A stretch of 64,000 nucleotides of DNA from Planctomycetaceae bacterium. GTDB lineage: Bacteria > Planctomycetota > Planctomycetia > Pirellulales > Pirellulaceae. Of this stretch, positions 41,867 to 60,100 are shown one piece after another. The stretch covers positions 3,280-67,279 of the forward strand of contig SYJV01000175.1 in the NCBI GenBank assembly GCA_005798335.1, written 5' to 3'. Every line of letters starts with the position of its first letter. The first letter of the stretch is position 1. The position numbers and the translations under genes are program-made. Below the pieces are notes generated by a model. The model ran no database searches. It was not told where the DNA came from and saw nothing but the letters and a program-made list of their open reading frames with translations.

Positions 41867-42550
41867 CTACGCGACCTCAGGTTGAGTAACTTTCCGCTTG
41901 GATCGCACACGGCGAACTACGCCAGCGCCAACCGCAGCCAATCCCATAAGTGCCATAGACGATGGCTCTGGTACTGCATTAACCGCAACTTGAACTGTCG
42001 CACTGTTACTAAAGGCAAGTGCATCCACTGAAATCGCGTTGGGGTCATTGCCGAAAAACAAGCCTACTTGGTTTCCACCATTTATGTCATTAAACCCGAA
42101 TACCGTCGTACCACCTGCCCCAGTATTTAGAGTCATGTTGCCTACCAACATGCGACGAGTGGTTGCATTTACTGTGTCAATGGATCCTGACCCAGGCGTG
42201 GGATTGAATGAAATGTTGTTGTACGCAACACCTGTAGCATTCGGGAACGCTCCACCGATTGCGGTCGCAGAATTGATTGCGAAAGCTGGATTTCCTGCAG
42301 CAGCCGTGACTCGAGTAGTGCCTCCGGAACCGACGACATTGTACTGGACACCCTGCGCGCCAACCCAAGTACTCGCTGGGTCGGCAGCCAAACGTGATTC
42401 AACCAAATATATATTCGTGCTGATCACAGAATTCGCAGTTTGGTTCAGGTAGTTTGCCTGATCCAACTGAAACGAGTAAGTAAACGCAGCTTGCGTTTGA
42501 ACTGTGGCAACCAAAGTAATCACCGCTGCCAATAGAACACTTCTGAGCAT
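41867..42550 (-). CDS. PEP-CTERM sorting domain-containing secreted protein
   Basis: Signal peptide MLRSVLLAAVITLVATVQTQA. The C-terminus is VPEPSSMALMGLAAVGAGVVRRVRSKRK (VPEP motif, TM helix, basic cluster). Confidence 0.85.
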   Translation of the reverse strand: MLRSVLLAAVITLVATVQTQAAFTYSFQLDQANYLNQTANSVISTNIYLVESRLAADPASTWVGAQGVQYNVVGSGGTTRVTAAAGNPAFAINSATAIGGAFPNATGVAYNNISFNPTPGSGSIDTVNATTRRMLVGNMTLNTGAGGTTVFGFNDINGGNQVGLFFGNDPNAISVDALAFSNSATVQVAVNAVPEPSSMALMGLAAVGAGVVRRVRSKRKVTQPEVA

Positions 42551-42746
42551 CTCATCGATCCTTATCAAGTTTATGACCTTCATCAGTGGGAAATTAAAAT
42601 TCCCAGATCGCCCATTCCACTGAGTCTAACTATCCAACAAACCTTGTCAACAAGGTTACATTAACGCAAACAGTTTTTTCGACACATTCCAACCTGCCGG
42701 GCTTCCTTATCTTCCGGCAGGTTTACGCTAAAACCACCTCTAATTA

Positions 42747-45700
42747 CTAAAAACCATTTAGGTTTCGGCTAGCATTGAAATTTTGGAGGAACGCATTCAA
42801 GTCGGTAAAGTCAACGAAATTATCACCATTCTTGTCCAGATCTTCACGATAGTTTCCGCTGGTCAGCGCAATAACCAGGGCATTGAGATCGGTAAGATCA
42901 ACTATTGTACTACCATCAGTATCTCCGTACAAACGATAGAACTTGTCAACCGCTTGATTGCCATACACAAAGTTTCCACCAGGGGCACCGTTGTTGTCAC
43001 CATCCAGTGCAAACAGTCCGGCTTGTGAGCGAACCTTGGTGGCGTCGATCTCAAGTCGATAGTTGCCGTCGATCAGCGAACCAGCCGAATCGACAAACGT
43101 CGTGGCAGGACTGCTCGGAGCGACTGTGGGTAGGAACGTAATGCTGACGACGGTCTTACCGGCAACTACGGCTGGTGCTCCAACGTTAGTTTGGGCTGCT
43201 GGAACGTTGCCGATTGTAATCGGTGCACCAGCAATGTCGTCACGACGTTGGACGACAAAGGCGCCCGCATCAATTTGGACGACAGTATTGAACGTGACTG
43301 TCAACTTCTTCAGGCTCGAACGAGTAGCATTGCCGTCGTTGATGACAACGGATTCGACTCGTGGAACCGTGACGTTCTGTAGTTGAATATCCAGACGCCC
43401 CGAAGTCGCATTTCCAACGGCGTCGGTAGCAACAAATTGAACTGCGTCAAACGCATTCGCTATTGTTTGGGTATACAGCACTTGGCCTGCATTCACCTGT
43501 GCTTGCGAGAATGTGGAAATCGGTACCTGAGGTGCACTAGTAAGCGCCAAGAATCCGGACTGTGGAGCATTGGTTACGATGTAGGTAACATTCGCCGCTG
43601 GACTCACTGCATCAACTGCGTTGAGCACTCCTGTTGTTAGCGTTGTTACCTGCGTGGTAATGGTCAGCAGGTTCGTGGTAACAACCGGACCGGTTGTGTC
43701 CTTGATTGCAGTCGTGGTCGCAGTACCGACGTTGCCAAACGGATCAGTGCTTTCAACGATCACCGTGATCGTGCCGTCCACGAGGCTAGAAATATTCGCG
43801 ACGGTCGGAGCAATTATCGAATACGCTCCTGTTGGTCCAGCAGCAGTATTAACAGCTACTGAGTTGTTGTTCACGTCACGGAACGTGATCTTAACATTCA
43901 ATCCTGGTTCAGCACCATTACCGGACACTGGAACGGCAGCTTGCTCGCTAGCATTAATCACGTTGTCCGAAGTGATCGGAGTATTTACGGTTACCGCAGG
44001 AACCGTTGTTTCCTTGACTACGACTCGAGTCACTGTTGTGACGTTGCCAGCAGGATCGGTCGACTGGGCTGTTATGGTAACAGGTCCATCCGGGAAAGCG
44101 ACAATGCTGGGCAACGTTACGGTGTAATTTGCGGTACCATTTGCATTAGCTGTCGCAGTTACCGTCTGATTACCCGAAGTTGCAGTTACGGTTACCGGAA
44201 GATCGTCGCGAGTACCAGTAACCACGACGCCAGGTGCTTCCGCGGCATTAATAACGTCGTTGCCCGCAATCGTGGTTACTGCCAACAGAGGTGCAACGGT
44301 ATCGATCACAGCAGTACTGCGTGTGGCCTGTCCTGTGTTATTACCAAGATCAGTAGAAACTGCGGTGACAGTTATGCCGCCTTGAGCAAAGCCAGACAGG
44401 TTCGCGGTAACTGTAAAGGCACCAGCAGCAGCAGTTGTGATCTCATTGACCACTAAGTTGCCCTGCGTAATGATCACGCTGACAGGAATACCATTGGTGT
44501 TGGTAGTGCCGGTGATGACAACGGCAGCAACTTCAGCAGCGTTGATAAAATCGTTGCCAGCAATCGGATTGATACTCAACACCGGCGCCGCCGAATCGAT
44601 CGTGATCGTAAGTCCATTATCCAACCCACTATTAGCTCCTGTGGTATTGCTTCCTGTCCCAGCACTTACATTACCTGCCAAATCGGTAATCAAAACGTTT
44701 ATTTCCAGAGCAGTTCCTGTGGCCTGAGCCGGTATCTCGAAAATAAACCGACCATTCTCGTTAACGACGGCTGTGCCCAAAGTGGTTCCGCCGTTGCGAA
44801 CAGTAACCGTGTTGCCGACCAACGTGTTTGCCGCAGCAGGATTGCTGGCACTTGTACCGTCGCTAATCTGTCCGACCACGACCAACGTATTGTCGTTCAC
44901 AAAAATTGTTGGGCCATTAACGATTTGATCCAGGATATAGGCTGTGGCTCCTACATCTCGAAGCACAACAAAACTGTTTGCAGGGAGATTCGTCGGCATT
45001 CTCGGATCCGGCAAAGTGGCGGGAGGCGTGGGAACCGGCGGATATGTCAGTGCGAAAACGGTAGCCAAAGCGGGTGCATTGGCACCATTCCAGTTCGCCA
45101 AACGAACGATATTGGGCGCCGCAGTGTCGAGCACAATTGTATCTACGTCGGTGCTAACGTTTCCAGAAGGATCTGCGTTGCTGGCGGAAACCGTTATGAA
45201 TCCGTCGCCAAACGCAAGTCCGCCGCTGCTCCGCAAATCAATGCTTGGAGTCACCCAAGTTCCCGTCGCTGTTGATGTCACATTAAATAACCGACTAGCA
45301 CCCACTCCAATTAAGGAAACTGTAACTGTACTATTCGGTGTTGCGCCGATTCCAGAAATCGTAAATCCAGCAGTTCTTTCCCCATCAGTGACATACCCAG
45401 AGATACCAGGTGTTTGTGGACCACCAGCGATTGGAGTATTGATTGTTAACCCTGGAATCGAACTGTCTTTCGTTACCGAGCGCGAGGCATTCGATGTGTT
45501 GCCTGCCGCGTCAGAATTTGAGGCAGTTACGGTAATTTGACCGTCATTCAGCGTTGAAATACCGGCGAGATTTGTGGCAAGCGTGAAGTTGCCGGCTGCG
45601 TCTGCGGTTACGGTCCGCACTACCGCAGGTGTGGCTGCGTTATTATCGTCGAGAGAAACGGTCACGATTGCGTTGGGTTCCGCATTGGTGCCGGTGACAT

Positions 45701-48700
45701 TTACACTGTTCTGCTCCGCGGCATTGATAACATCGTCACCCATGATCGGAGCGTTGATCTGGATAGCTCGTATGACGGTATCCTTAAGCAATGCTGGGTG
45801 GTTTGGAAGGATGAAGTTTCCAACCGCGTCAACCGCCTTGACCTGCACAGTGATCGCGCCGTCCACCAAGCCGGTCAGGTTCGCAGGATTCAATGCCAAG
45901 CTGTAGTTACCGCCAACCTGAGCTGTGACATTCTTGACAACTTTGTTGGCTGGGTTCGCAGAATCCAAGAAAGTGATTTCTACATTACCAGATGGTTCAG
46001 CTCCTGTCCCCGAAATCTCAACAGTCGTAACTTCGCCAGCATTGATACGGTTGTCCAGCTCGATGGGAGTATTAATTGTTGCCACTGGCGCGGTGCGATC
46101 CATGATCAAGGCGCGAGTCGCAGAACCAGTATTGTCTCCCAGATCGGTGCTGGATGCTTTCACGGTCAAATTGCCATCGACCAATGCCGTACTATTTAAA
46201 TTGAATCCCGGTGCGGCGATTGTGAATTCGCCCTTGGCGTCCGCAACGACGCCATTGATCGTGACAACCGTGTTTTGACTATCGGTGACTTGGATCGTCA
46301 CGGGCCGATTCGGATCAGCACCGGCACCGGCAACGATAAATACCGGAGACTCGAACATATTGACGGCGTTGTCAGTCATGATCGGCGCGGTGATAGTGAT
46401 GTTTGGTGCGACTCGATCGATGGTAATAACGCGAGTTGCTGTTGCCAGGTTACCAGCCGCGTCAATATTGTTGGCAGTTACGGTCACCGGTCCATCGGGG
46501 AAGTTCGACAAATTACCATCGTTACTTGGAATTCCCAAAGCAGGAATTGCCGCCAAAGTATACTTGCCGGTTGCATCTGCGACTACGGTTTTGACTTGAG
46601 TAGTTGGGCCACTTGTAAAGGTGACCACGACAGATGTATTCGGCGTCGCGTTAATACCCTCGACTGTCACAACGTCGTCTTCTGCTGCACTGACTACATC
46701 ATTACCTGCAATCGGACCGGTAATGGACAATGTAGTGGGTGCTGTATCTTTGCTGGCCGTTCGTGTTGCTACGCCAGCATTATCCGCTTGGTCGCGACTG
46801 GTTGCGGTTACCGTAATGTTCGCAGTTGCAGCGTCTGCTAAAGGAACTGCAAAAGGCGCATTCAGAGACAAATTAGCTCCAACACGCACATCCACAATTG
46901 CCTGATAGTCGCCAATCGCATTAGCAAACACTCCAGCCAAAATACGTTCGGGTCCACCTGCCTGCTGGATCTTGATTTCGACTGGCAAGTTTGGTTGCGC
47001 TCCTTTGCCATTTATCACCAGTCCCGGTGCCTCATTTTCGTTGATGATACCATCTCCGCCGATCACATTTAGAATGATGCTTGGTGGCAGGGTATCAACA
47101 GTAATTTGGAATTGGCCAGAGTCGGGTGCTGGGTTTCCTGCGGCGTCTCTTGCTCTAGCGATCATCTGGTAGGTGCCGTTGGGCAAAAGACCAGTTGCCA
47201 ATGTCCATGTTCCGGCAGCAGCATTGAGGGTAGCAAGGCGATCTCCGCCGGGAAGACCAGAAATCGTAACCGTGCTGGACTGAGCGGCATCGTAGGTGCC
47301 GTTCAAGGTAAAGCTGGTATGGTTGGTACTGGCCAAATTGTTCAAAGTTGTCGGCGAAGTGGCTGCTCCACCAGATGCATTTGTAGCATTGATAATCGTC
47401 GCTGCGGCGGTCGGTGCGGTCTCATCCAAGGTTGCAGTAAATCTAATTGCAGCTTCGTCCGCACCAGACAGCGCGATCGGATTTCCTGCAACATCCGTAA
47501 ATCTCACATCGACGTTTATGCCACCTTCATTGAGGCCGCTGATGTTGATTGGATTCCCATTGCCAAGCTTATCCACAGTAAAAGCATAAGTAAGAGGCAC
47601 GTTATTCGCATCCACCGTGAGCACCGTTGCCGTACCAAAGCCAACAATGTCTCCCGTAGCCGGACTGTTATTTACATCGATAAACGTAACAGCAACTTGT
47701 CGGCCGGTCAGCAACCCTGCGTTGGGATTAGCATCCGAAATCGTGCCAGAAATTGTAACTGCGTTGGATTCCTGAATGCTAATCAAGCCTAAGTTGGTCC
47801 CCGTTGTCGCGGGAGCAGCGGGTAGGTTATCGAAATTCGTACCAGTGACCGCAAGGATTGGAAGCACCGTGTCTATCGTATTAATCGCGCGAGTCAAATT
47901 AGTCACGTTGCCAGCAAAATCCACTGCAGTGACTATTATGTTCGCGGCTGGCGTCGTCCCGGTCAACGTTGCATTTGCCAGCGTTTGAAGTTGCGCAGTC
48001 GTAAATACTCTGTTAAAGCTACCGTTACCATCCGCTGGCACACTAAACGGACCAATAGTAACACCATTTGATCCAACAATCTGGATTGAAACAGAAGCAA
48101 ATGGCGTAGTGGTACCCGTGACTCTGCGTGCATCATCACTACCCACCAATTCTCGACGATTAAGTGTACCATCGCCGCTAAAACCGCTATTGGCAAGCGT
48201 AAGAACTGGGGGTACCGTATCCAATTCGACATTTACTTTTGCGGTTCCCTTATTCCCAGCCAAATCAGTGACTTCGGCAGTTACTACTACAGTGCCGTCA
48301 GTAATACTGGCAATGCTGAATGGTGCGGTAGCGTAAGTATTGGCACCCGTGACCGTTGCGGTTGCAACAACGTCAGCCGAGCCTGCCTTCCTAAATGTAA
48401 GCGTAACAACACTACCAACATTGATGCCAGCGGTGTCCGTAACCGTACCGCTAACGATAACGCCATTCTTTTCACTGTTGTTGACGAAGTTATCGCCGGT
48501 GATGGGAGCAATGGTAATTGTTGGAACACCGGTATCTTTTGCAACCGTGGCGGAAGTCAATCCGATGTTGCCAGCCGCGTCCGTATTGCGAACGGTTATC
48601 ACAATCTGACCATCGGCCAGCGCGGTCAAGTCTGCTGTCGTTGTAAAGTTCGTACCTACTGATGTGACATTGCGTGTCACGGAATTAACGCCGTCAGAGA

Positions 48701-51700
48701 AAGTGATCAACACATTGGAATTCGGAAATGCTCCGATACCGTTAATCTGAACATTGGCGACTTCATTGGCGCCAATGCGATTGTCGCCCATCACCGGCGT
48801 CGTGATAGTCAATGATGGAGCGTTACGATCCAAGACAACATTTCGAGTCGCGGTACTCTGATTGCCGGCGCGATCCGCACCCGTCACCGTAATGGTAAGT
48901 GCACCATCCATGAAATTCGCCAGATTAAATAGATTTCCATCATTTGCAAATGCCCCGTTCACTACCGGAGCTGTGCGAGTTTGGCTGATAGCGACGTTGT
49001 TTACATCTAGGCCTACGATCGTAATCGTAACACTGGGAACGCCCGATCCCGTGGCGCCGTCGCCGGCAAGGCCAGATACTCGCACGTTCAGCGACTCGGC
49101 AGCGTTGATAACGTTGTCCGCAGCCACCGTATCAATGAAGATCAGCGGACCTTGGGTATCCTTGAAGAGGACAATGTTCGCCGTACCCGTGTTTCCAAAT
49201 GCATCGGTACTGGTCGCGGTGAGATCAATCTGACCATCCAGCAGTCCGGCGATGTTCGCTTCGTTTCCTGGCGCTGCCGCTCCCAATACAAGAGCATAAA
49301 CACCATTTGCATTAGCAGTTACATTGCGTACAACTGGCTGCGTTGTGCCCGCGTTAACCCCGGTATCATTGAATGTAATAGTTACCAGCGAATTCGGTTC
49401 TGCACCCGAGCCAGTCACTATCACTTGTGTTAATTGAGTTGCATTGAGTGCCGTGTTGTTCAGCGGCGCACCAATCACGATGGCTGGTCGAATTGTGTCC
49501 AATGGTACAATTGCGGAGGCAGAGCCGGTATTGCCCAGTGTGTCGGTGCTAGTAACTTGGATTTTCACATCACCTTGGCTGAATCCAGATAGATCGACTT
49601 CGTTGCCCAGCAACGTGAATCCCCCCGCTGCATCAGCGGTGACCGTACGGGACGCAGAACCCGTTGGACTTCCAGTAAATGTCACAGTGACCGGACGATT
49701 GGCAGCAGCACCGGTTCCTTGAATCAAGACGTCTGCCGCTTCTGCCGCATTAATTCGATTGTCATTTTCAATTGGCGATGTGATCACGATCGCGGGCGGA
49801 TTGGCTTGTTTGGTAAACGTCGTAGTAGCGATTCCGACATTACCAGCTAAATCCTGTGCCGTTGCCTGGACAAGAATGACCCCATCTGGCAATCCAACGA
49901 TGTTGGCTGGGTTCGCAGCCAACGTCCAATTGTTTCCAGTAGCGGCAACGGTTCGTGTCACCGAATTTGCACCGATCGAAAACGTCACAGTTACCGTACC
50001 GTTCGGAGCGTCCGTGGTACCACTGACCACCAGGGCATTAGCCTCGGCTAGCGTGACCAAATTGTCCGACGTGATAGGTGAGTTGATGGTTACCACGGGT
50101 GGAACTGTGTCCACGGTGATTGGACCAAACGGACTGGAAACAGCACCCTCATTGGGCGCGTTGTCCCTTAAGGTCGCCGTGAAATTGTATACTCCAGCCG
50201 GCAGTACTGAAGTTGTCGCAGTCCAAGCAGTTCCATTAACGACTGCGGTGGCCACTTCTGTGCCGTTTGCCTTCACGGAAATTATTGTGCCATTAGCCGC
50301 AGTGGTCGTACCGGTAAAAGTAAGCGTTGTATCGTTCGTAATACTACGATTTGTTGGCGCGAGCAACAGTGGCGCAAAATCATCGGTGGCACCCAAGATT
50401 GACACCGCACCAGCAGGGATCGAGGTATCGTAGAATACTCCCCTTTGGTTGGTACTGGTGTTGTTTGCGTTGTCGGTAAACGATGCCATCACTGTGACGG
50501 CACCTTCCGAAAAGGCCGGTGCAGCCGAAAGATTGAACAGCGCAGTAAATACACCATTCGCATTGGCAACAGCGGAAACGGTGCGAACGATATTGGTTGG
50601 AACTAGTTGTGTTACGGTCACGGTAACGACGCCACCTGCATCGGCACCAGTACCCGTAATTACTAGTGCAGAACCCTCTGCAATACTAACTATATCATTA
50701 CCGGCAATCGGCGTAGTAATTAGGATTACCGGTGTCGATGTATCCTTGTTCAACACGCGCTGGGCACTGCCAACGTTGCCGACCGGATCCGTGCTGGTAA
50801 CGGTAATCGTTACTGGGCCGTCAGGCAGCGCGGTAATATTTGCGCCTGGATTGAGGTTATAAGTTCCGTCTGCCGCAGCCAAAACTGTGCGAGTCACTGT
50901 GTTTCCACCGCCGCCGGCAAATGTAATCGTAACGTTGGTATTTGGCTGTGCACCGGTTCCAGTCACAATCACATTCGTGGCTGGAACAGCGGGAGCAATA
51001 CCTGTCAAGTTAATAGTGGTTCCTGCGGTCGGTGTGGTAATTTGTACAGCAGGTGGAGTCTTGTCTAACGTAAAGGTCGTCGTCGTGGATGTCGGTGTAC
51101 CATTGGATGGCAGCGAGCTGACGCGAACGGTAATTTGTCCATCGTTCAAGGCGGTAATATTAAAACCAGCAGCGGGCAGCGAATATTGACCATTGGCGCC
51201 AGCGATAATGATCGGAGCGGCCAGCAAGTTAGTACCATCCAAAAATTCGACCAACACTGGCTGGTTCGGAGCTGGACTAGTACCAGAGATTACAACTTGT
51301 GTGGCTTCGGTAGCATTAACAACATTGTCGGCAGTAATTGGGGTGTTAATCGTGGGGGCAGCGGGAGCGGTTAAGTCAATCGTAAATGCTCGGCTGCTTG
51401 ATCCCGTATTTCCCGCAGCGTCTGAACTTATAGCGATTACCGAAGCAGCTCCTTGAACAAACGGAGGAGCAGCCAACAAGTTCACTGGCGCACCGCTAGT
51501 GTTGAACTTACCTGTCGCGTCAGCTTGTACCGAAACCTGCTTGACGACTGCACCTTGAATATAAGCGGTCGTGACGAATTGATTTGGCTCGGCACCGGTA
51601 CCTGAAACTGAGACGTTTCCTGCTTCGCCCGTTGTAACAACATCGTCACCGCCAACTGCGTTGGGCAGTTGCGGCAACGGAGCGATCGTATCCTTGCCAA

Positions 51701-52130
51701 TCGTACGAGTTACAGCGCCCGTGCCGTCATTAACCGTAACGGTAATATTCTTGTTGGTTTGAGCGGGGACAGGACTTTCCGCAAACGTAAACAAGTTCGC
51801 GCCTGGAGCCTTCCAGGTACCATCCGCGGCCGCTGTGGTGTTAACTATGGTCGAAGAGGCACCTTGAGTAAAGGTAACAACCACATTAGACGAAGCAGTA
51901 GCTGCGGTTCCGGAAACGATAACAGCGTTTTGTTCCGAACTGTTGACGATATCGTCACCCGCGATCGGCAAAATGTTCACGGCCATTAGTTTGCGGCCTT
52001 CGAGCGATTCGCTCAGCAAACTGCGGAATGCGAACCGATTGGAGCGTGAGCTGGTTTGGCTGAGCCCCAAAATGTTGCATAAGGCGAACCAAAGTCCAGC
52101 GGCTTTGCTGATCACCCAGTCACACACCAC
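42747..52130 (-). CDS. giant (3127 aa) Ig-like-domain repeat surface protein with dockerin-like C-terminus
   Basis: About 25 tandem ~100-aa modules, each opening with D(T/R)xxP...I(N/T)xPIxGD(D/N)xxNxxE...(I/V)SGTGAEPN..VT(V/I)TF. These are followed by a cadherin-like segment and a duplicated Ca-binding loop tail (DTDGSTIVDLTDLNAL...DKNGDNFVDFTDLNAF). The N-terminus carries the planctomycete-type motif SLLSESLEGRKLMA. The start is uncertain; GTG 52130 is the first start codon of the ORF. Confidence 0.85.
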   Translation of the reverse strand: MVCDWVISKAAGLWFALCNILGLSQTSSRSNRFAFRSLLSESLEGRKLMAVNILPIAGDDIVNSSEQNAVIVSGTAATASSNVVVTFTQGASSTIVNTTAAADGTWKAPGANLFTFAESPVPAQTNKNITVTVNDGTGAVTRTIGKDTIAPLPQLPNAVGGDDVVTTGEAGNVSVSGTGAEPNQFVTTAYIQGAVVKQVSVQADATGKFNTSGAPVNLLAAPPFVQGAASVIAISSDAAGNTGSSSRAFTIDLTAPAAPTINTPITADNVVNATEATQVVISGTSPAPNQPVLVEFLDGTNLLAAPIIIAGANGQYSLPAAGFNITALNDGQITVRVSSLPSNGTPTSTTTTFTLDKTPPAVQITTPTAGTTINLTGIAPAVPATNVIVTGTGAQPNTNVTITFAGGGGNTVTRTVLAAADGTYNLNPGANITALPDGPVTITVTSTDPVGNVGSAQRVLNKDTSTPVILITTPIAGNDIVSIAEGSALVITGTGADAGGVVTVTVTQLVPTNIVRTVSAVANANGVFTALFNLSAAPAFSEGAVTVMASFTDNANNTSTNQRGVFYDTSIPAGAVSILGATDDFAPLLLAPTNRSITNDTTLTFTGTTTAANGTIISVKANGTEVATAVVNGTAWTATTSVLPAGVYNFTATLRDNAPNEGAVSSPFGPITVDTVPPVVTINSPITSDNLVTLAEANALVVSGTTDAPNGTVTVTFSIGANSVTRTVAATGNNWTLAANPANIVGLPDGVILVQATAQDLAGNVGIATTTFTKQANPPAIVITSPIENDNRINAAEAADVLIQGTGAAANRPVTVTFTGSPTGSASRTVTADAAGGFTLLGNEVDLSGFSQGDVKIQVTSTDTLGNTGSASAIVPLDTIRPAIVIGAPLNNTALNATQLTQVIVTGSGAEPNSLVTITFNDTGVNAGTTQPVVRNVTANANGVYALVLGAAAPGNEANIAGLLDGQIDLTATSTDAFGNTGTANIVLFKDTQGPLIFIDTVAADNVINAAESLNVRVSGLAGDGATGSGVPSVTITIVGLDVNNVAISQTRTAPVVNGAFANDGNLFNLANFMDGALTITVTGADRAGNQSTATRNVVLDRNAPSLTITTPVMGDNRIGANEVANVQINGIGAFPNSNVLITFSDGVNSVTRNVTSVGTNFTTTADLTALADGQIVITVRNTDAAGNIGLTSATVAKDTGVPTITIAPITGDNFVNNSEKNGVIVSGTVTDTAGINVGSVVTLTFRKAGSADVVATATVTGANTYATAPFSIASITDGTVVVTAEVTDLAGNKGTAKVNVELDTVPPVLTLANSGFSGDGTLNRRELVGSDDARRVTGTTTPFASVSIQIVGSNGVTIGPFSVPADGNGSFNRVFTTAQLQTLANATLTGTTPAANIIVTAVDFAGNVTNLTRAINTIDTVLPILAVTGTNFDNLPAAPATTGTNLGLISIQESNAVTISGTISDANPNAGLLTGRQVAVTFIDVNNSPATGDIVGFGTATVLTVDANNVPLTYAFTVDKLGNGNPINISGLNEGGINVDVRFTDVAGNPIALSGADEAAIRFTATLDETAPTAAATIINATNASGGAATSPTTLNNLASTNHTSFTLNGTYDAAQSSTVTISGLPGGDRLATLNAAAGTWTLATGLLPNGTYQMIARARDAAGNPAPDSGQFQITVDTLPPSIILNVIGGDGIINENEAPGLVINGKGAQPNLPVEIKIQQAGGPERILAGVFANAIGDYQAIVDVRVGANLSLNAPFAVPLADAATANITVTATSRDQADNAGVATRTASKDTAPTTLSITGPIAGNDVVSAAEDDVVTVEGINATPNTSVVVTFTSGPTTQVKTVVADATGKYTLAAIPALGIPSNDGNLSNFPDGPVTVTANNIDAAGNLATATRVITIDRVAPNITITAPIMTDNAVNMFESPVFIVAGAGADPNRPVTIQVTDSQNTVVTINGVVADAKGEFTIAAPGFNLNSTALVDGNLTVKASSTDLGDNTGSATRALIMDRTAPVATINTPIELDNRINAGEVTTVEISGTGAEPSGNVEITFLDSANPANKVVKNVTAQVGGNYSLALNPANLTGLVDGAITVQVKAVDAVGNFILPNHPALLKDTVIRAIQINAPIMGDDVINAAEQNSVNVTGTNAEPNAIVTVSLDDNNAATPAVVRTVTADAAGNFTLATNLAGISTLNDGQITVTASNSDAAGNTSNASRSVTKDSSIPGLTINTPIAGGPQTPGISGYVTDGERTAGFTISGIGATPNSTVTVSLIGVGASRLFNVTSTATGTWVTPSIDLRSSGGLAFGDGFITVSASNADPSGNVSTDVDTIVLDTAAPNIVRLANWNGANAPALATVFALTYPPVPTPPATLPDPRMPTNLPANSFVVLRDVGATAYILDQIVNGPTIFVNDNTLVVVGQISDGTSASNPAAANTLVGNTVTVRNGGTTLGTAVVNENGRFIFEIPAQATGTALEINVLITDLAGNVSAGTGSNTTGANSGLDNGLTITIDSAAPVLSINPIAGNDFINAAEVAAVVITGTTNTNGIPVSVIITQGNLVVNEITTAAAGAFTVTANLSGFAQGGITVTAVSTDLGNNTGQATRSTAVIDTVAPLLAVTTIAGNDVINAAEAPGVVVTGTRDDLPVTVTATSGNQTVTATANANGTANYTVTLPSIVAFPDGPVTITAQSTDPAGNVTTVTRVVVKETTVPAVTVNTPITSDNVINASEQAAVPVSGNGAEPGLNVKITFRDVNNNSVAVNTAAGPTGAYSIIAPTVANISSLVDGTITVIVESTDPFGNVGTATTTAIKDTTGPVVTTNLLTITTQVTTLTTGVLNAVDAVSPAANVTYIVTNAPQSGFLALTSAPQVPISTFSQAQVNAGQVLYTQTIANAFDAVQFVATDAVGNATSGRLDIQLQNVTVPRVESVVINDGNATRSSLKKLTVTFNTVVQIDAGAFVVQRRDDIAGAPITIGNVPAAQTNVGAPAVVAGKTVVSITFLPTVAPSSPATTFVDSAGSLIDGNYRLEIDATKVRSQAGLFALDGDNNGAPGGNFVYGNQAVDKFYRLYGDTDGSTIVDLTDLNALVIALTSGNYREDLDKNGDNFVDFTDLNAFLQNFNASRNLNGF

Positions 52131-52930
52131 TACTGGCGTTCGAAACGCGCGTTACCACCACGACAAGCGATCGTGATGTCGAGCGAGCATGTGAACGGTG
52201 GCAAGTTTGATCCGTTCCCGAAGGCGAAGTACCTTCTCGCGACTGCGTGCGATGCGAGCTGAGTCAAGGGAACTGTTACGGGAATTGCGTCTTGATGCGG
52301 ACATTGTAACAACCTCTGTTCCAGCGAATCGGGGGGAACGCCCAAAAAGATCAACTGAGTTTCTAACTAGTTCGGATTTTTACGGCTGAGACGATTCCAA
52401 CTGGTGCTGCGTGAACGGAATTGGAAATCGTCAAATTATTAAACAGGATTTGGGATGGGAATTTCAGGTACGATCTACCAGTTTGAGCTTTGCGCCAAGA
52501 TTGCCGAATTTCGAGACTTGTCTTGTTAGCAAGGAAATTGGCACTTCGAGCAAACTAGCGAAAATAGCAGATACTCAACCGATAGTAACTGGGGCGGTTG
52601 CACAAAATGCTCCCTCGCGCAAGCGTACGTGCGATAGCTTCGAAGTGAATTGATGCCCAGGAATCCATAGAACGATGCAGTTCTCCCTTGAACTGCTCGT
52701 ATTTTTGAGCGATACCCTACGCAAATTTTTGAGCGATGCACTACGCGAAGTCGAAGAATGGAAATCTCCGGTGCATCGACCAGCTAAAAAGCTGGTGGGC
52801 AGATAGTTTCCAACACCGACGATCAACTAATTTCTGCCACTAAAATTTGTCAAATCGTAGTGGTCAGTAAATAATAGTTGGTTCGACTAGAATCGGAGGA
52901 ATGATCTTTGCAGAAGTTTGCAACGACTGT

Positions 52931-53072
52931 GGTCTAATTGCAATACCGTTCAACGAACGTGGGATAAGTTTCCAGCTTGTCAATATTTTGTGCAAGCAAT
53001 GGCGAAACTCCGCTACAGGTTGACAAGCTGGAAGCTTATCCCACGTTCGTTGAACGGTATTGGGTCTAATTG
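52931..53072. mobile_element. MITE family B copy 1: 122-bp element (52941..53062) with 10-bp target-site duplication ggtctaattg
   Basis: Terminal inverted repeats caataccgttcaacgaacgtgggataag(t/c)ttccagcttgtcaa of ~43 bp. The direct repeats ggtctaattg at 52931-52940 and 53063-53072 are identical. The element is too short to code for a transposase. Confidence 0.85.
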
Positions 53073-53086
53073 GACGAAGTTTGTTT

Positions 53087-54919
53087 TTACTTTGAATCGA
53101 TAGGTTGCTCGGTCGTTTTGGCCTTAGTTTGGTCCGCTGGTTTGATTTGCTTGTCTGCTTCTTCTTTTTTCTTTTGCGCGGCGTCCGCGTCCTTTTTCTT
53201 TTGCTGCTGGTCAGCAATCTTCAAATGCACTTCGGCTTGTTCTGCATTGCCTTCCAGTTTGTAAGCTTCGGCAATTCGTTGGTGATACTCGGGACATAGT
53301 TTGCTACCGCGACCAGCCAACTCGATTGCAAACTCCAATTGGGTAATCGCTTCGGAATATCGTTTCTGCTGGATATACACATAGCCAAGCGTATCTCGAA
53401 AATCCGGAATGAAGGGCGCGATGCGCACTGCCAGCTCTGCATGCTCACGAGCCTTCTCAATCTCGTTGGGCTTGTGCATGGCCAATGTGTATGCCAAGTT
53501 GTTGTTATACTGCGGGTTGCCGGGTTGGCTAGCGAGCAGTTTCCGGCAGTGATCAATGGATTTGTCGTAGTTTTCTTGCAAATAGTAAGCTTCTGACAAC
53601 ATGGCATGAGTCAATGGCGTCGCGGTTCCTTCCGCCAAGACTTCTTTTAACTGATTGATAAGATGCTCGGGTGGTTTGTCTCCGCCGATGCGCACCAAGA
53701 TGGCGATTTCCTCGGATATGCCAGGATTCGTTGGGTCTACACGCATGGCTTGATCTAACAATTCAATGTTGGCTTGCCAAGTTGGTTGGTCACCTGTGAT
53801 AATCTCAAGCGAGCGTTTGAAGCGCACGCGCAGCACGTCGGAAAGACCTCGGCTGAGCGACTTGATTTCTTCAGGCTTCAGTCCCGGTCGACTCAAGCCC
53901 TGGTCGAGCAATTGTGTTGCCGTCACCAGGTCGTCGTTGGTCGAGCTCTTGTATGAGATATGTACTTGTGCGAGCATCAACCGATCGCGAGGAGTGTCTT
54001 CACCTTTTGAGATTAGATCTCCAAAGTAAATTTTGGCTCGCCGAGCGGCATTGTCGGCCTCCGCTTTGCTGTCGGATGCCTGAGCGGCTTCGAGGACCTG
54101 CAGATAGTACTCGGGCTGCAGCGTGGCGGCACGCTTCAGCAAGTCGATAGCGCGCAGAAAATTCTTCTCCTGAAACGCGAACTGCGCGGCCAGCATCAGC
54201 AGTTGCGGCGGAGTAGTGGAAAATTTAGTCGATTGATCCAGATGGTGCCTTAATACTGGAAGTTGTTCCGTGGTAATATTTCCCAGGCGCAGCATGTTGT
54301 ATGCAATCAATGCATGCGAACGAGAGTGCCCTTCTTTGTTATCGGGAGCAATTTCCTTCAGCAAATTGATTCCAGCAGTTAACGATCCTTGTTGGCTCAT
54401 CATCGCGGCGATGACAAACATGATCTCAGGGTTATCCGACTGCAGTTGCTGAGCGCGACGAAAAACTGCCTCGGTGAATCGCGAAATTTTGACTTCTTTT
54501 TTTGGCTCGGCAGCCTTCGGAGCAGCACTTTTCTGTGTCTCGCTGGATTTTTTGCTATCGCGCGCTGGGCTCGTTTTTCCGCCAGGCGTGCGCTTGCCCT
54601 TGTCATCCGATTTTGGCTCAGCAGCGGCCGCTGCCGCTTCAGCATCAAGCTCGTCGAGATTGATTTCTGTTTTTTCTCCGGTGCCTCCAAAAGCCCAATC
54701 GTCACCGATTTTCTTCAGCTCTTTCTCGCCGATTGATAAGTACCATCCAGCCAACGGTTGCTTGGGCAGCAAGCTACCCCAGGTCGACATCATGAACAGC
54801 GTTACAGCGATCAGGCCGGGCAGCGCCAGCAGAGATATTCGGCCCCACGCGCGGGTAATTAACCAATCAAGAAAACAACCGGAGGCGTTCACCAGAATGG
54901 CGCCAGGTGCCAGATGCAT
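53087..54919 (-). CDS. membrane-anchored TPR repeat protein with K/A/E-rich low-complexity regions
   Basis: An N-terminal TM helix (ISLLALPGLIAVTLFMMSTW) and a lysine/alanine-rich linker are followed by multiple TPR-like units (e.g. AYYLQENYDKSIDHCRKLLASQPGN, YIQQKRYSEAITQLEFAIEL). The tail is basic and acidic. It starts 50 bp downstream of the exosortase-like gene. Confidence 0.75.
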   Translation of the reverse strand: MHLAPGAILVNASGCFLDWLITRAWGRISLLALPGLIAVTLFMMSTWGSLLPKQPLAGWYLSIGEKELKKIGDDWAFGGTGEKTEINLDELDAEAAAAAAEPKSDDKGKRTPGGKTSPARDSKKSSETQKSAAPKAAEPKKEVKISRFTEAVFRRAQQLQSDNPEIMFVIAAMMSQQGSLTAGINLLKEIAPDNKEGHSRSHALIAYNMLRLGNITTEQLPVLRHHLDQSTKFSTTPPQLLMLAAQFAFQEKNFLRAIDLLKRAATLQPEYYLQVLEAAQASDSKAEADNAARRAKIYFGDLISKGEDTPRDRLMLAQVHISYKSSTNDDLVTATQLLDQGLSRPGLKPEEIKSLSRGLSDVLRVRFKRSLEIITGDQPTWQANIELLDQAMRVDPTNPGISEEIAILVRIGGDKPPEHLINQLKEVLAEGTATPLTHAMLSEAYYLQENYDKSIDHCRKLLASQPGNPQYNNNLAYTLAMHKPNEIEKAREHAELAVRIAPFIPDFRDTLGYVYIQQKRYSEAITQLEFAIELAGRGSKLCPEYHQRIAEAYKLEGNAEQAEVHLKIADQQQKKKDADAAQKKKEEADKQIKPADQTKAKTTEQPIDSK

Positions 54920-54968: not shown

Positions 54969-56747
54969 CTACGGAGACGTCTTTAGGATGCGCGATTTTA
55001 GGGCAGCGGAGGCTTCGACAACGAATGTTTGGTAGTCACCGCGGCGGCTATCGGAAATGGCTTTGCCTGAATCTAGAAATAAACGCGTTTGATAGGTTAC
55101 CAGATCTTTTGCGGATTTGCCAAGCAATCGCCCGACAAGAGTTCGGGATAGTCGCCGATTCCAGTCCGCGCGCCATCCGCTTTCTGGAACGGCCGGATTT
55201 CCGCTGGAGTCAAACGCAGTGTACCAACCATAAGCAACTGACTTCAAGTCGTTGACAAATTCGACCTCGACGATGGGCCATGGTTGGCTGCCACTTTCCC
55301 CTGCAATCGCCAATCTTTTTGGCGCTGCGTTGAGTCTCCAACCTGTGCCCGGCATGACCAACCAATGCTGTTGTTGTCCAACATACGGAAAGTCAAAAGC
55401 AACCACCGGTAATCCGTCGGTACCCGAATATCGCCATGCTAATAGGTGCGTTTTGTTCCCAATCCCAAACTCGTGTTCGGAACGATCAACACCCTGCTGT
55501 TTCAGTCCTCGCGACTCGATCGGCAATGTGTCCAGCGCACCGATCACCGCTAATTGCTCTTCTGCGTAGGCAGGCACTACAACGCCAGCCGACGGACTTG
55601 GCAGCAATGCCCCGATGACTCCCAGCACCGACACCAGCAGCGAGCCAATCATCAACGGAATTCGCCAAACGCTGGCTGCCCAGGGATCGGTTGCTCGAAT
55701 CGTGTCACGGTAATTGGGTCCCTTCCATGCGGTCGTTTGTTTTTTCTGCGTGGTCGCTTCATCGTCCCCAAAATAATCGTCTTGCTCTTCTTGGTCGGCT
55801 CCTTGGAAGGTCAGATTTCCTGGCCACATTACGACGCGATTGTAAAAACCATGCAAACCGACGGTCGCTTGTTGAGACAATTCAACCGGCAGCGGCTCAA
55901 ACAGAAACGATAATGCGTCAATCAAGATCACCAAGAACAGGAATGACAATACGAACAGACCGATATTCAGAAAGACTCCAGTTGCCCCAATCGACCAGTC
56001 GGCTGCAAAGGATTCGCGCCCCCAGATCAGCAAGAGTATCTTCAAAGAGTTGCTCAGCCACCCCAAGATTGGAATCGTTGCCAAAGTGAAAAAACTCATA
56101 ACGAACGGGCGACGCATCCACAGCAGCAGCGTCAGTGCACAAAAAGCCAACAAATAAACGCTATTCCACGAGAAAGCGTGCGAAGCCAAATCGAGGCGTT
56201 CGCTGCGCAAGTCTAATCGCAACTCTTGCAGCAAATTCGGAGTACCAATCAAATCGAGCAACGGACTCAACATAGTCGCCGCCTTGCGATAAAGCATGTC
56301 GACTAAACGTGTATCCAGCCCCGCAGGTGGCCAGGTAACCCACAACAGACCGGTGAGCGCAATTAATCGCGTCCAGGGGACTATTCCAAACCAAACTAGT
56401 ATCCAACCCGTTACTAGCATGATTGCAGCAAGCTGGCTCGTCGCAGGTGAAATCATGAACGCAGCGGCAAGGCTCATGGCGATCCCTGCTACGGTAAATC
56501 CTATCGAAAACACTCTTCGCAAATGTGATGCCGCAAATCCCACTCGCGGTTCAGTGGCAATAAATGCGGCGAAAACCAGCCAGGCGACGAAATAGAATCG
56601 CAGGTGAGGTTTTCCCCAAAGGGCTGTCATCTGCACCACTAGCAGCGGAATAATGGATACTATTCCGCTTAGGATTAACCAATTTGTAGCTGTGGTCCAG
56701 CGAGAATTGGTTGCGGTCGGCTGCGGTATATTTCCTGGTTCTGCCAT
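54969..56747 (-). CDS. exosortase-like polytopic membrane protein with EpsI-like C-terminal domain
   Basis: The N-terminal ~300 aa are multi-TM with an exosortase-like layout (WPPAGLDTRLVDMLYRKAATMLSPLLDLIGTPN...LDLASHAFSWNSVYLLAFCALTLLLWMRRP...IPILGWLSNSLKILLLIW). The C-terminal soluble domain contains QQHWLVMPGTGW, reminiscent of the EpsI H-x-P-x-x-C-x-P-G-x-GW motif. The start is ATG 56747. Confidence 0.55.
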   Translation of the reverse strand: MAEPGNIPQPTATNSRWTTATNWLILSGIVSIIPLLVVQMTALWGKPHLRFYFVAWLVFAAFIATEPRVGFAASHLRRVFSIGFTVAGIAMSLAAAFMISPATSQLAAIMLVTGWILVWFGIVPWTRLIALTGLLWVTWPPAGLDTRLVDMLYRKAATMLSPLLDLIGTPNLLQELRLDLRSERLDLASHAFSWNSVYLLAFCALTLLLWMRRPFVMSFFTLATIPILGWLSNSLKILLLIWGRESFAADWSIGATGVFLNIGLFVLSFLFLVILIDALSFLFEPLPVELSQQATVGLHGFYNRVVMWPGNLTFQGADQEEQDDYFGDDEATTQKKQTTAWKGPNYRDTIRATDPWAASVWRIPLMIGSLLVSVLGVIGALLPSPSAGVVVPAYAEEQLAVIGALDTLPIESRGLKQQGVDRSEHEFGIGNKTHLLAWRYSGTDGLPVVAFDFPYVGQQQHWLVMPGTGWRLNAAPKRLAIAGESGSQPWPIVEVEFVNDLKSVAYGWYTAFDSSGNPAVPESGWRADWNRRLSRTLVGRLLGKSAKDLVTYQTRLFLDSGKAISDSRRGDYQTFVVEASAALKSRILKTSP

Positions 56748-57134
56748 CAACTGCTATCCCTACTACTCCCGGTTAAAGCCCTCGTGCTGTTCAACTAATC
56801 AATCTGACTCGTCGGCACGCGGCAGGATCCATCAAAACGCGTTGATAAACGTCACTGCCCAGTCACGTCCGAGCCAGCTCGTTCGAACGGCTTCGTGGTT
56901 CAAGGGGGAGCGTATCGCGCAACCACCCTTCGATACACTATACGCCTTATTCAAGGGATCGTGTTGATTCGCTGTGTTTTATTCACTTTTCTGGCTCTCT
57001 TACAAAAGGACTAATTGTTACCAACTTGTTTCGCAACACCGGCAGGGATCGAATCAACGGTTGTTTCCGCTAAGATTAGAAGGGTGCTTTAACCTCACTT
57101 TTTCGGCAAACTCGCCAAATTCGGAAACACGCTC

Positions 57135-60100
57135 ATGATCCCGCTCATATTTAAGCGGCCCGCGATTTGCTTGTTTAACCCGCAGCCGCAGGCGAGGACT
57201 ATCTACGTTTACGCGATTTACCGCAGTTGTCCTCGCCTGTGGCTGCGGGTTAAACACAATACCGTTCAACGAACGTGGGATAAGCTTCCAGCTTGTCAAC
57301 CTGTAGCGGAGTTTCGCCATTGCTTGCACAAGATATTGACAAGCTGGAAGCTTATCCCACGTTCGTTGAACGGTATTGGGGTTAAACAAGCGAATCGCGG
57401 GCCGCTTGGGGTCATCTTCCTACTTGGCGCAATTCTCAGTCTGAGCAATCCTGAGCGAGCTCAAGGCGTTCAGACGGGCCCGCCAGAAAGCTTAGAAGTG
57501 CTGTTCTGGGGCGACAACGGTCATCATCAACCAGCCGCGCGCGCTCAGCAGCTCATACCAGTTCTGGCAAGTCGCGGAATCCGCGTTCAGTATTCAGACA
57601 ATTCCGATGACCTGAATCTCGATAACTTGAAGAAGTTCCATGGCCTAATACTGTACGCCAACACGACGCGCATCGAACCTGCACAAGAATCGGCCTTGCT
57701 GGAGTATGTTGCGCAAGGCGGCGGTTTTGTTCCTTTACACTGCGCATCGTATTGTTTCTTGAATTCATCCCCCTACATCGATTTGGTGGGCGCCCAGTTT
57801 CTAAAACACGGCGCAGAAACGATGGCTACCAAGATCGTTGCACCCGATCACCCGATCATGCGCGGTTTTTCGGGATTTCAGAGCTTCGATGAAACCTACA
57901 TTCACACCAAACACAACGATCGCAATCGAATCATCTTGGAAGTTCGCGAGCAGGGTGGCCAGGCTGAAGGCAGATCCGCCGAGCCCTGGACATGGGTTCG
58001 CACCCACGGATCAGGTCGAGTTTTTTACACTGCCTGGGGACACGATCATCGCACTTGGGGGCATCCGGGGTTTCATGCTCTTGTCGAACGAGGAATTCGT
58101 TGGGCGTGTGGCAGCGACCAGGCACTAAATCAACCCTACCTCGATCAAGAAGTATTTGCAGTACCAGAAATGACCACACTGGCTGGCGACTTGGTACCTT
58201 TTGAATACGAAGATGTGGGACCAAAAATTCCCAACTATCCTGTAAGTGAACGTTGGGGAGTCTTGGGCCAGAACAAGTCACGCATGCAGAAACCGCTGCC
58301 GCCTTCGCATTCGATCAAACACTTCGTTACACCTGAGAACTTCCATTTGGAACTGTTCGCCTCAGAACCCGAGATTCAAGGCAAGCCCATTGCTATGAAT
58401 TGGGACCATCGAGGCAGACTGTGGCTGTGCGAGACCATCGATTATCCCAACGAATTGCGCCCGCCAGGTGAAGGCCGCGACCGGATTCGCATTTGTGAAG
58501 ATACCAACGGAGACGGACGAGCGGACAAATTCACCGTATTTGCCGAAAACCTCAGCGTACCCACGGCCATCGAGTTCTACCGTGACGGCGCAATTGTACA
58601 CGCGGGAGTCGAAACGCTGTTCCTGCGCGATACTAACGGCGATGATCGCGCCGACCAGCGCGATGTGCTGATTACTGGTTGGGCCATGAACGATACGCAC
58701 GGCGGTGTCAGCAATTTCCAATACGGACTCGATAATCGCTATTGGGCCATGCAAGGCTACAACAACTCGCGCCCTAAATTTGCAGGCGGCAGCCATCCCG
58801 GATTCCGGCAAGGTCCCTTCAACTTTGTGGTGGACGGCGTTCAGGCACCAGCAGTTCCAAGTGTCGAATTCGTCCGTTCGACGACGAATAACAGTTGGGG
58901 ATTGGGAATCAGCGAAGAAGGGTTGGTATTCGCCTCGACTGCTAATCGAGCCCCCAGTTTTTTTGTGCCGATTCCAAATCGTTACTATGAACGAGTACGA
59001 GGCTGGAGCGCATCTCTAATCGCCGATGCAATCTTTGACACGCACTTGTTCAAGCCGATCACTCAAAATGTGCGGCAAGTCGATCATCACGGGGGATACA
59101 CCGCTGGTGCTGGGCACGCACTCTATACAGCGCGGAATTATCCACAGTCTTGGTGGAACCGCGTGGCGTTTGTGTGCGGTCCAACGGGTCACTTGGTAGG
59201 TACCTTTGTCTTGCGTCGCGAGGGAGCCACCTATCGCGACACCAACCCGTTCAACCTGCTGGCAAGCGACGATGAATGGTCCGCTCCCATCATGGCCGAA
59301 GTTGGACCGGACGGAAATGTGTGGGTCATCGATTGGTACAACTTTATTGTCCAGCACAACCCGACGCCCCAAGGTTTTTCCACCGGTCAAGGCAATGCCT
59401 ACGAAACGGATTTGCGCGACAAGAAACATGGACGCATCTATCGCGTCGTTTACGATGGTCCCGACGCTGGGCACGCACCTTCGCCGGATCTTTCGTCAGA
59501 AAATGCGGCAGGCTTGGTCACCGCACTATCGCATCCTAACCGGCTGTGGAGACGACATGCACAGCGCTTGCTGGTGGAACACAATCATAGGGATGTCATC
59601 GGCCAGTTGTTAAGACTAGTCAAAGAGCCGTCAATGGATGCCGCTGGTCTGAATGTAGGAGCTATTCACGCGCTGTGGACATTGAAGGGAATCGGAGCCA
59701 TCAACGAGCAAGCGAAAGATGTAATGCAAGCGATCTCGGCCGCACTTCGGCATCAGTCTGCGGGAGTTCGCCGCAATGCCGTTCTCGTCCTGCCACCATC
59801 AGAGCACTCGATCAGTGCTATTGAAAACGCAGGCATCCTAGCCGATTCCAATCTTCAAGTTCGCCTGGCGGCGTTTCTCGCACTAGCCGATATGCCGGAG
59901 AATGCTCAGGCAGGCGAATTGCTGGCTCGCGCGGCACATGTGCCAGAAAACGTTGCGGATCGATGGTTAAAAGAAGCGATCATTTGCGCCGGAGCTAGCC
60001 ATGCCAGTTCGTTTCTAGCTGGACTTTTGGGAGCGAACCTTCAGTCGAGCACCTCAACCGCAGGAGGCGAAGTCGCCGTGCCAACTGGCAGAATCGAAAT

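Follow-up and report, generated by a model that had tools for sequence, protein, structure and literature searches.

What does an exosortase do once it has lost the Cys, Arg and His that define its active site? This question is raised by a gene on the minus strand of a 64,000-nt stretch of DNA from a Planctomycetaceae bacterium (the window; NCBI GenBank assembly GCA_005798335.1, contig SYJV01000175.1, positions 3,280 to 67,279), whose product, here called the XrtU-like protein, is probably a structurally intact, catalytically inactive paralogue of exosortase U, i.e., a pseudo-exosortase acting as a non-enzymatic helper, as judged from sequence comparison. In the exosortases, C-x-G, N-x-x-R and H-x-x-x-G are the invariant motifs of a putative catalytic triad (Haft et al., PMC1569441), the conserved Cys and Arg were shown to be critical by mutagenesis of the archaeosortase ArtA (PMC9263693), and in a superfamily whose members otherwise diverge widely the triad shows almost perfect conservation (Haft 2023 preprint). 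The evidence that the XrtU-like protein dispenses with all three residues, that this loss recurs within its family, and that it is accompanied by the loss of a second motif in the C-terminal domain is presented first; the gene neighbourhood and the possible roles of such a protein are considered thereafter.

An Exosortase U Paralogue without the Catalytic Triad

The gene and its three catalytic positions are the following:
54969..56750, minus strand: gene for the XrtU-like protein (triad-less exosortase U paralogue), from the list of open reading frames (ORFs), with the stop codon at 54969-54971
56172..56177, minus strand: codons of A192-F193, catalytic Cys column (canonical E-A-C-S-G); F193 by hidden Markov model (HMM) alignment, A192 by MAFFT
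56040..56051, minus strand: codons of N234-S-L-K237, N-x-x-R motif (HMM alignment, high posterior probability)
55977..55979, minus strand: codon of G258, catalytic His column (canonical H-T-x-L-G; HMM alignment, high posterior probability)

The initial annotation of this ORF had placed its product among the exosortases by eye, and HMM searches agree. A profile built exclusively from 79 canonical, triad-positive XrtU members matches residues 17-588 with 332 bits (E = 1.7e-100), and the NF033780 model (exosort_XrtU_C) scores 44.7 bits against the full protein, above its cutoff of 40, the match covering the C-terminal 150 residues. The Pfam model Exosortase_EpsH (PF09721) remains under its gathering score of 25.7 (19.2 bits), yet it aligns over nearly its whole length, with model positions 11-251 of 254 corresponding to residues 37-277. 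TIGR02602 and TIGR04178, the latter being the signature model covering the region of the Cys, Arg and His, give no match at E values up to 10. At the level of sequence, full-length homology of the XrtU-like protein to exosortase U is beyond doubt.

The alignments likewise uphold the proposal that Cys, Arg and His are substituted. The Cys column is occupied by F193 in the HMMER alignment (moderate posterior probability), as the initial annotation had it, or by A192 in the MAFFT alignment, which is shifted by one residue; neither is a Cys, and no Cys lies within 10 residues on either side. In the N-x-x-R motif N234 is retained and the Arg is replaced by K237, and the H-x-x-x-G region reads G258-V-F-L-N262. 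The only Cys of the entire protein is C204 in the peptide LLAFCAL, which had been named beforehand as a residue that might overturn the proposal by proving to be the catalytic Cys after all. It fails to do so, since it lies in the middle of the predicted transmembrane (TM) helix 198-212 and is conserved in just two of the ten members of its clade (clade A, see below); C204 is ruled out as a displaced catalytic Cys. In the AlphaFold2 (AF2) model, the substituted Cys position lies at the end of a short helix preceding TM helix 198-212, and the substituted Arg and His positions lie in the outer third of TM helix 216-248 and at the start of TM helix 255-283, respectively. The three positions are predicted at the ends of three consecutive helices, matching the topology described by Haft et al. 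(PMC1569441). In the aligned columns, the XrtU-like protein thus has none of the three residues by which the exosortase/archaeosortase active site is defined.

The ORF and the peptides quoted in the initial annotation are all present as described. Translation from TTG at 56750 yields 593 aa and from the directly following ATG at 56747 yields 592 aa; public gene calls for the protein (P0001, 592 aa) use the ATG, which is also the end coordinate given in the initial annotation. An identical copy of the gene occurs in three other assemblies, the DNA being the same in all independent assemblies.

Recurrent Loss of the Triad in the Exosortase U Family

An exhaustive HMMER search of 1.84 billion representative proteins recovered 470 relatives at E <= 0.001 and 178 at E <= 1e-10, nearly all of them 520-620 aa long and sharing the same two-domain layout. 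Other searches returned little: word-indexed homologue searches started from the single protein or from the clade A alignment yielded just the XrtU-like protein itself and one weak match, and scans of species-representative genome contigs, with the single protein or with a 5-sequence alignment, found no relative. Among the best 150 relatives, 121 full-length representatives were aligned. The canonical members carry the motifs L-F-V-(D/E)-E-A-C-S-G-V-D-S-L-Y, W-A-x-x-G-N-x-x-R and D-L-S-x-G-x-x-H-T-x-L-G, and the family can be identified as exosortase U because these members pass TIGR04178 (43-54 bits, cutoff 23), Pfam EpsH (88-128 bits) and NF033780 (82-137 bits). TIGR04178 finds no match in the five other triad-incomplete members scanned (P0002, P0004, P0029, P0056 and P0075).

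Cys, Arg and His are all present in 79 of the 121 representatives; 27 have no Cys at the catalytic column, and the remaining 15 are mixed, i.e., they retain the Cys and lack the Arg and/or the His. On a neighbour-joining (NJ) tree the degenerate proteins form several deep clades, and Fitch parsimony on this tree requires at least four transitions between complete and incomplete triads, a count that is approximate given the NJ method. P0019 represents a clean, recent loss of the triad within a canonical subclade. The XrtU-like protein belongs to clade A, together with P0002-P0007, P0010, P0015 and P0049, and is a member of one among several triad-less XrtU clades, not a unique oddity.

The ten representatives of clade A are all full length and share 23-45 % identity. 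Across them the Cys column reads ALAHALSFMN in the register of residue 192 and FGSGGDGSNA in that of residue 193, the Arg column reads KHQQQLYYKM and the His column reads GGLLSLLLLI. R78, R79, G115, P125, T127, R128, D166, N304, W309, P310, A353 and P356 are invariant in all ten, D355 and W357 are kept in at least nine, and the near-invariant scaffold of the whole family is kept in the XrtU-like protein (P54, R78, P142, D166, S197, L201, G255, W439, P455 and G470). No conserved Cys, Ser or His that could replace the triad was found in clade A. As shown by this alignment, the catalytic columns are effectively random in clade A while other motifs are invariant, which is the pattern of a fold and some function being kept after selection on the active site was lost. 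Nor are the substitutions chance noise, judging by their occurrence in the same kind across clade A and several other clades of the family.

Loss of a C-Terminal Motif in Step with the Triad

Canonical members carry a further motif in their soluble C-terminal domain (XrtU_C), D-F-P-F-x-G-x-H-x-L-x-x-C-Y-x-x-x-G-W, which is degenerate in the XrtU-like protein:
nt 55338-55394, minus strand: degenerate XrtU_C motif, D453 to W471 (HMM alignment)

Here the motif reads D453-F-P-Y-V-G-Q-Q460-Q-H-W-L-V465-M466-P-G-T-G-W, with the His, Cys and Tyr replaced by Q460, V465 and M466. The same residues follow the fate of the triad throughout the family: both His and Cys are kept in 78 of the 79 triad-positive members, and neither is present in 26 of the 27 Cys-less and 11 of the 15 mixed members. 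Even allowing for a handful of independent losses, this co-loss implies that the C-domain motif is needed only together with a functional membrane active site, and it suggests that the soluble XrtU_C domain shares in the chemistry of active exosortase U.

The initial annotation had likened this C-terminus to EpsI and had remarked on its missing Cys. The latter part holds, the Cys column being occupied by V465, whereas the similarity to EpsI is not significant and the domain is XrtU_C. The EpsI models (TIGR02914/DUF3485) give no match to the XrtU-like protein at E values up to 10, and the DUF3485 model (PF11984) gives one marginal match (12.8 bits, E = 0.094) to the XrtU_C domain of one canonical member, located at the H..C motif.

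Architecture of the XrtU-Like Protein

Four segments can be distinguished in the protein:
55902..56702, minus strand: N-terminal multi-TM domain of exosortase fold, residues 17-283 (Pfam EpsH match and predicted helices)
55665..55901, minus strand: interdomain linker, residues 284-362, presumed cytoplasmic by the positive-inside rule (clade A conservation)
55605..55664, minus strand: ninth TM helix, residues 363-382 (hydropathy and AF2-predicted helix)
54972..55568, minus strand: soluble XrtU_C domain, residues 395-593, presumed periplasmic (NF033780, 48.1 bits on the isolated domain)

The AF2 model is confident, with a mean predicted local distance difference test (pLDDT) score of 90.7 and a predicted template modelling (pTM) score of 0.89. 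The N-terminal domain is predicted to consist of helices 21-45, 53-66, 76-99, 102-120, 126-137 and 142-167, followed by a hairpin at 173-187 and the helices 198-212, 216-248 and 255-283. The linker contains the family motif Y-N-R-x3-W-P and, specific to the clade, an acidic stretch and A-(S/T)-D-P-W; its residues 311-350 are modelled with lower pLDDT (59-83). The ninth TM helix would return the chain across the membrane and place the C-terminal domain, modelled as a beta-sheet with helices at high pLDDT, in the periplasm.

Structural databases offered no close relative. Sequence searches of the PDB with the XrtU-like protein and with the family profile returned nothing relevant, and a Foldseek search of the model against the PDB gave no match at E <= 0.001. 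The top matches, to a SciW/Eag chaperone (E = 0.16) and to START/Bet v 1-like folds, are weak, involve the C-terminal domain only and are taken as uninformative.

A Conserved Module with PEP-CTERM and TPR Partners

The genes of interest around the XrtU-like gene are as follows:
53087..54919, minus strand: membrane-anchored tetratricopeptide repeat (TPR) partner, 610 aa (TPR Pfam matches), 49 nt downstream of the XrtU-like gene
42747..52130, minus strand: Ca2+-tandemer/Ig-like adhesin, 3127 aa (NF033510, 538 bits, 21 repeats)
41867..42583, minus strand: candidate PEP-CTERM cargo, 238 aa (TIGR02595, 24.3 bits, cutoff 16)
nt 41870-41974, minus strand: PEP-CTERM sorting tail VPEPSSMALMGLAAVGAGVVRRVRSKRK, at the end of the 41867..42583 product

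The TPR and PEP-CTERM neighbours had both been anticipated from the sequence and both are confirmed, with the qualification that the PEP-CTERM gene is not adjacent: it lies 10.5 kb downstream, and the adhesin gene is inserted between it and the TPR gene. The adhesin gene is missing from the other clade A loci and stands outside the conserved module; its product has no PEP-CTERM tail of its own. By eye, the adhesin C-terminus appears dockerin- or EF-hand-like (DxDxDG-type repeats).

Six other clade A loci were inspected (L001, L007, L009, L010, L011 and L012). Four of them (L009-L012) present a divergent upstream gene for a protein of 169-177 aa with a recorded PEP-CTERM domain match, followed by the XrtU-like gene and a gene for a TPR protein of 511-528 aa. 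L007 shows the same layout, its 177-aa protein being assigned by homology only, and L001, which is too short to display the upstream side, shows a downstream TPR-like gene. In L001, L009 and L010 the XrtU-like gene and the TPR gene have 4 nt in common, and full-length TPR orthologues (34-52 % identity) stand behind every clade A gene examined, sharing an N-terminal DW(L/M)xTRxWR motif and a TM anchor. The small PEP-CTERM proteins of these loci are mutually homologous and their tails keep V/I-P-E-P. The PEP-CTERM protein of the window matches that of L009 (L009_177; BLASTP E = 2e-8, 35 % over 110 aa) and has in common with the clade A proteins an AAF(S/T)(Y)SFQL start after the signal peptide and a VPEP tail. 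These loci show that clade A keeps the canonical XrtU gene module, i.e., a small PEP-CTERM protein, the XrtU-like protein and a membrane-anchored TPR protein.

For comparison, a catalytic locus (L013, ERZ26165887) encodes two small PEP-CTERM proteins, a 543-aa XrtU, a TPR protein and a 573-aa XrtU, both XrtU proteins being triad-positive. The clade A TPR proteins match the TPR protein behind P0056, a triad-less member of another clade (clade D), over their full length (182-188 bits), and the TPR protein of the catalytic system in the C-terminal third only (63-79 bits); the TPR partners co-diversify with their XrtU. Identity of the TPR neighbour with PrsT, the TPR lipoprotein of the XrtA/PEP-CTERM system, was ruled out, as it scores 68.2 bits against TIGR02917 (cutoff 312), a similarity of TPR repeats only.

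In another locus (L015; GCA_028281725.1, JANQJJ010000457.1), the Cys-less P0056 is encoded 3.6 kb from a Cys-bearing protein of the P0020 type (Arg replaced by Ser), and a third XrtU-family gene, cut off by the end of the locus, lies on the same contig, making three paralogues within 12 kb. Dead and Cys-bearing copies can thus coexist in one genome. The same locus contains two TPR genes, as well as genes for an extracytoplasmic function (ECF) sigma factor and a conserved 340-aa protein, a pair that recurs in a further locus (L016).

Polysaccharide-synthesis genes are found in L007, L009 and L011; the XrtU-like gene of the window stands outside any exopolysaccharide (EPS) locus, and the XrtU-like/TPR/PEP-CTERM module has apparently moved to another place here. 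The other genes of the window are miscellaneous, encoding a xanthine-dehydrogenase-type molybdoenzyme, a Ser/Thr kinase, GlmU-like, TruB and UvrC homologues and an OEP-like protein. A PVC-type heme-binding CxxCH protein (TIGR02604) is encoded near the XrtU-like gene, and planctomycete-specific PSCyt/PSD domains occur in a related locus, both of which point to a genome of planctomycete type. The UvrC homologue (37452-38858, plus strand) has only 468 aa, compared with roughly 574-650 residues in UvrC models; its residues 42-280 align with TIGR00194 positions 3-230 and its residues 298-465 with NF011264 positions 365-535, and it appears from these alignments to lack a middle and/or C-terminal segment.

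A Dispersed Palindrome and the Search for a Catalytic Exosortase

The XrtU-like/TPR gene pair is bracketed by a repeat:
52932-53069 and 57250-57387: near-perfect palindromes of 138 nt (two 50-nt arms, 36-nt spacer)

As RNA, the palindrome is predicted to fold with -79.6 kcal/mol (z = -13.4), and Rfam yields no significant match for it. Exact copies of a 39-nt arm are present in 119 or more stretches from a single metagenome project (SXGS...), in many cases at the end of a contig. The palindrome is a high-copy dispersed repeat of the lineage, resembling miniature inverted-repeat transposable elements (MITE) or repetitive extragenic palindromes (REP), and its position beside the gene pair is probably incidental; on account of this high copy number, the palindromes were rejected as borders of a mobile cassette as the default reading. 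The ORFs 57135-57400 (plus), 57054-57389 (minus) and 52864-53217 (minus) traverse the palindrome and share a recurring pseudo-peptide, NTVQRTWDKLPACQPVAEFRHCLHKILTSWKLIPRSLNGI. Such read-through implies that the listed start at 57135 of a 1571-aa ThuA/PVC heme-binding gene is probably too far upstream.

The repeat gave access to 119 more contigs (954 kb) of the same metagenome project, which match the window in GC content and tetranucleotide signature (median r 0.94, equal to that between the two halves of the window). Neither the 64-kb window nor the flanking DNA of the other clade A loci encodes a catalytic exosortase, and no ORF of the XrtU/EpsH family was found in the 954 kb of same-signature contigs, a weak negative, as these contigs probably represent no more than a minor part of the genome. 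Two more PEP-CTERM-type tails are present in these contigs (L094, 975-1802, plus strand; L048, 2630-3451, plus strand; example AAVPEPSSMLLLGVASSLAAVRALRAKKNRAS), and the organism probably has several PEP-CTERM proteins, to judge from these tails.

Possible Roles and Alternative Explanations

The reading of the XrtU-like protein as an inactive exosortase U paralogue is based on the mutagenesis of the ArtA Cys and Arg, the superfamily-wide conservation of the triad and the lack of constraint on the corresponding clade A columns. The initial annotation had left the choice between a pseudo-enzyme scaffold or receptor and a new sortase subclass; the former is favoured here, and the unconstrained columns and the lack of an alternative conserved nucleophile on the periplasmic face speak against the latter. 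Such a protein would have no means to form a thioacyl intermediate. At the inner membrane it could dock its partner's PEP-CTERM tail, the TPR protein or both, acting as a non-cleaving receptor, holdase or adaptor, and might either retain the cargo in the membrane, deliver it to a catalytic exosortase from another locus or regulate such an enzyme. Its role could be that of a cargo receptor or retention factor, of an adaptor to a catalytic exosortase or of a non-catalytic subunit. In active XrtU, the co-loss of the membrane triad and the C-domain H..CY residues would be explained if the C-terminal domain joined in the same chemistry.

Several points weigh against this interpretation. That the protein would bind cargo or its TPR neighbour is read from synteny only, and the AF2 model is driven by an alignment that canonical members dominate. 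The replacement of Arg by K237 keeps the positive charge, and N234 is retained. Moreover, the window and about 954 kb of same-signature DNA revealed no catalytic exosortase, and if the genome had none, an inactive component with a PEP-CTERM cargo would be harder to explain.

One alternative, which is unlikely, is that the XrtU-like protein is an active peptidase or transpeptidase with a different catalytic set (Ser/Thr, Asp/Glu or migrated residues) and hence represents a new sortase subclass. The intact fold, the perfect VPEP retained by the PEP-CTERM partner and the failure to find another exosortase in about 1 Mb of same-signature DNA are in line with this possibility, although that sample is probably a small fraction of the genome; migration of residues is also documented for pseudoenzymes in general (PMC10211241). 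Clade A further has invariant polar residues of its own (R78, R79, T127, R128, D166 and N304, with D355 in nine of ten). However, R78/R79 and T127/R128 fall on the presumed cytoplasmic side of the predicted topology, away from an active site at the outer face, and D166, S197 and the Y-N-R..W-P motif are also present in catalytic members, which marks them as scaffold and not as replacements. In addition, all three canonical columns are unconstrained in clade A and the C-domain H..CY residues are lost too. The alignments provide no positive support for an alternative mechanism.

Another alternative, improbable on the present evidence, is that the XrtU-like protein is an obligate non-catalytic subunit of a heteromeric exosortase U, paired with a catalytic XrtU in the manner of a prozyme. 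Tandem XrtU genes do flank the TPR gene in L013, where both are catalytic, and L015 holds Cys-less, Cys-bearing and third paralogues within 12 kb. Furthermore, P0009 (full triad), P0020 (Arg replaced by Ser) and P0019 (triad lost) are placed in one sector of the NJ tree, and the gene slot that they fill, that of a second XrtU, appears to be the same. Nevertheless, no second XrtU is encoded near the clade A gene in L007, L009, L010, L011 or L012 (3.8-10 kb per side) or in the window, and the putative pairing with a catalytic paralogue is deduced from gene arrangement.

Finally, it is very improbable that the gene is a decaying relic or that the substitutions are an alignment artefact, as the sub-threshold Pfam and TIGR exosortase models and the one-residue register difference between HMMER and MAFFT at the Cys column could suggest, given the intact full-length ORF, the common invariant motifs and synteny of ten representatives at 23-45 % identity, the confident AF2 model, the 332-bit profile match, the high posterior probability at the Arg and His columns, the absence of any Cys within 10 residues of the Cys column and the poor conservation of C204.

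Significance

The XrtU family and the PEP-CTERM/exosortase system are already known; what is new is a recurrent, conserved, triad-less XrtU branch and the loss of the C-domain motif in step with the triad. A search of the available literature found no paper that mentions XrtU or inactive exosortases. A sizeable and repeatedly arising share of the XrtU family dispenses with the triad and stays conserved together with its cargo and TPR partner, and from a missing triad it can be predicted that the C-domain H..CY residues are missing as well, which ties the XrtU_C domain to catalysis. Annotation is affected as well: the NF033780 rule, with its cutoff of 40, would label the XrtU-like protein "exosortase U", an enzyme name for a protein that possesses no proposed catalytic residue.

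Whether exosortases perform transpeptidation in one step, what the acceptor is and which job the EpsI-type domain performs are standing puzzles of the system. With respect to these, triad-less XrtU proteins would be natural separation-of-function variants in which cargo recognition is parted from cleavage. It can be proposed, tentatively and with somewhat less than even confidence, that they are recurrent pseudo-sortases, serving as cargo-specific receptors or retention factors with co-evolving TPR partners, and that the EpsI-like/XrtU_C domain takes part in the catalytic cycle of exosortases, where it might provide, e.g., the second thiol of an acyl relay or a site for loading the acceptor. 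If this were true, functional work would gain its first point of entry to a domain that has lacked an assigned role since 2006.

Comparison with Known Systems

Exosortase U itself is the closest known system. The XrtU-like protein resembles it in two-domain architecture, in length, in passing NF033780 and in its PEP-CTERM and TPR partners, whereas it differs in lacking the Cys/Arg/His triad, the C-domain H-x4-C-Y motif and a match to TIGR04178, and in standing outside an EPS locus. With the wider exosortase/archaeosortase superfamily (XrtA, XrtB and ArtA) it shares the multi-TM layout and the association with PEP-CTERM proteins, and the motif positions of the superfamily, at the outer ends of three consecutive helices (PMC1569441), correspond to those predicted by its model; the motifs C-x-G, N-x-x-R and H-x-x-x-G are nonetheless absent from it.

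The likeness to the EpsI family (TIGR02914/DUF3485) consists in a soluble domain placed behind the exosortase TM domain, which in canonical XrtU_C carries an H..C motif. The difference is that the XrtU-like protein has no significant similarity to EpsI, any relation between XrtU_C and EpsI being putative.

Inactive rhomboids such as iRhoms and derlins handle rhomboid clients without cleaving them. Their fold and chemistry are unrelated to those of exosortases, and the client link of the XrtU-like protein is read from gene context; the analogy is one of function and not of homology, in that both would represent the polytopic fold of an intramembrane protease that has lost its catalytic residues while remaining conserved within a clade and linked to its clients.

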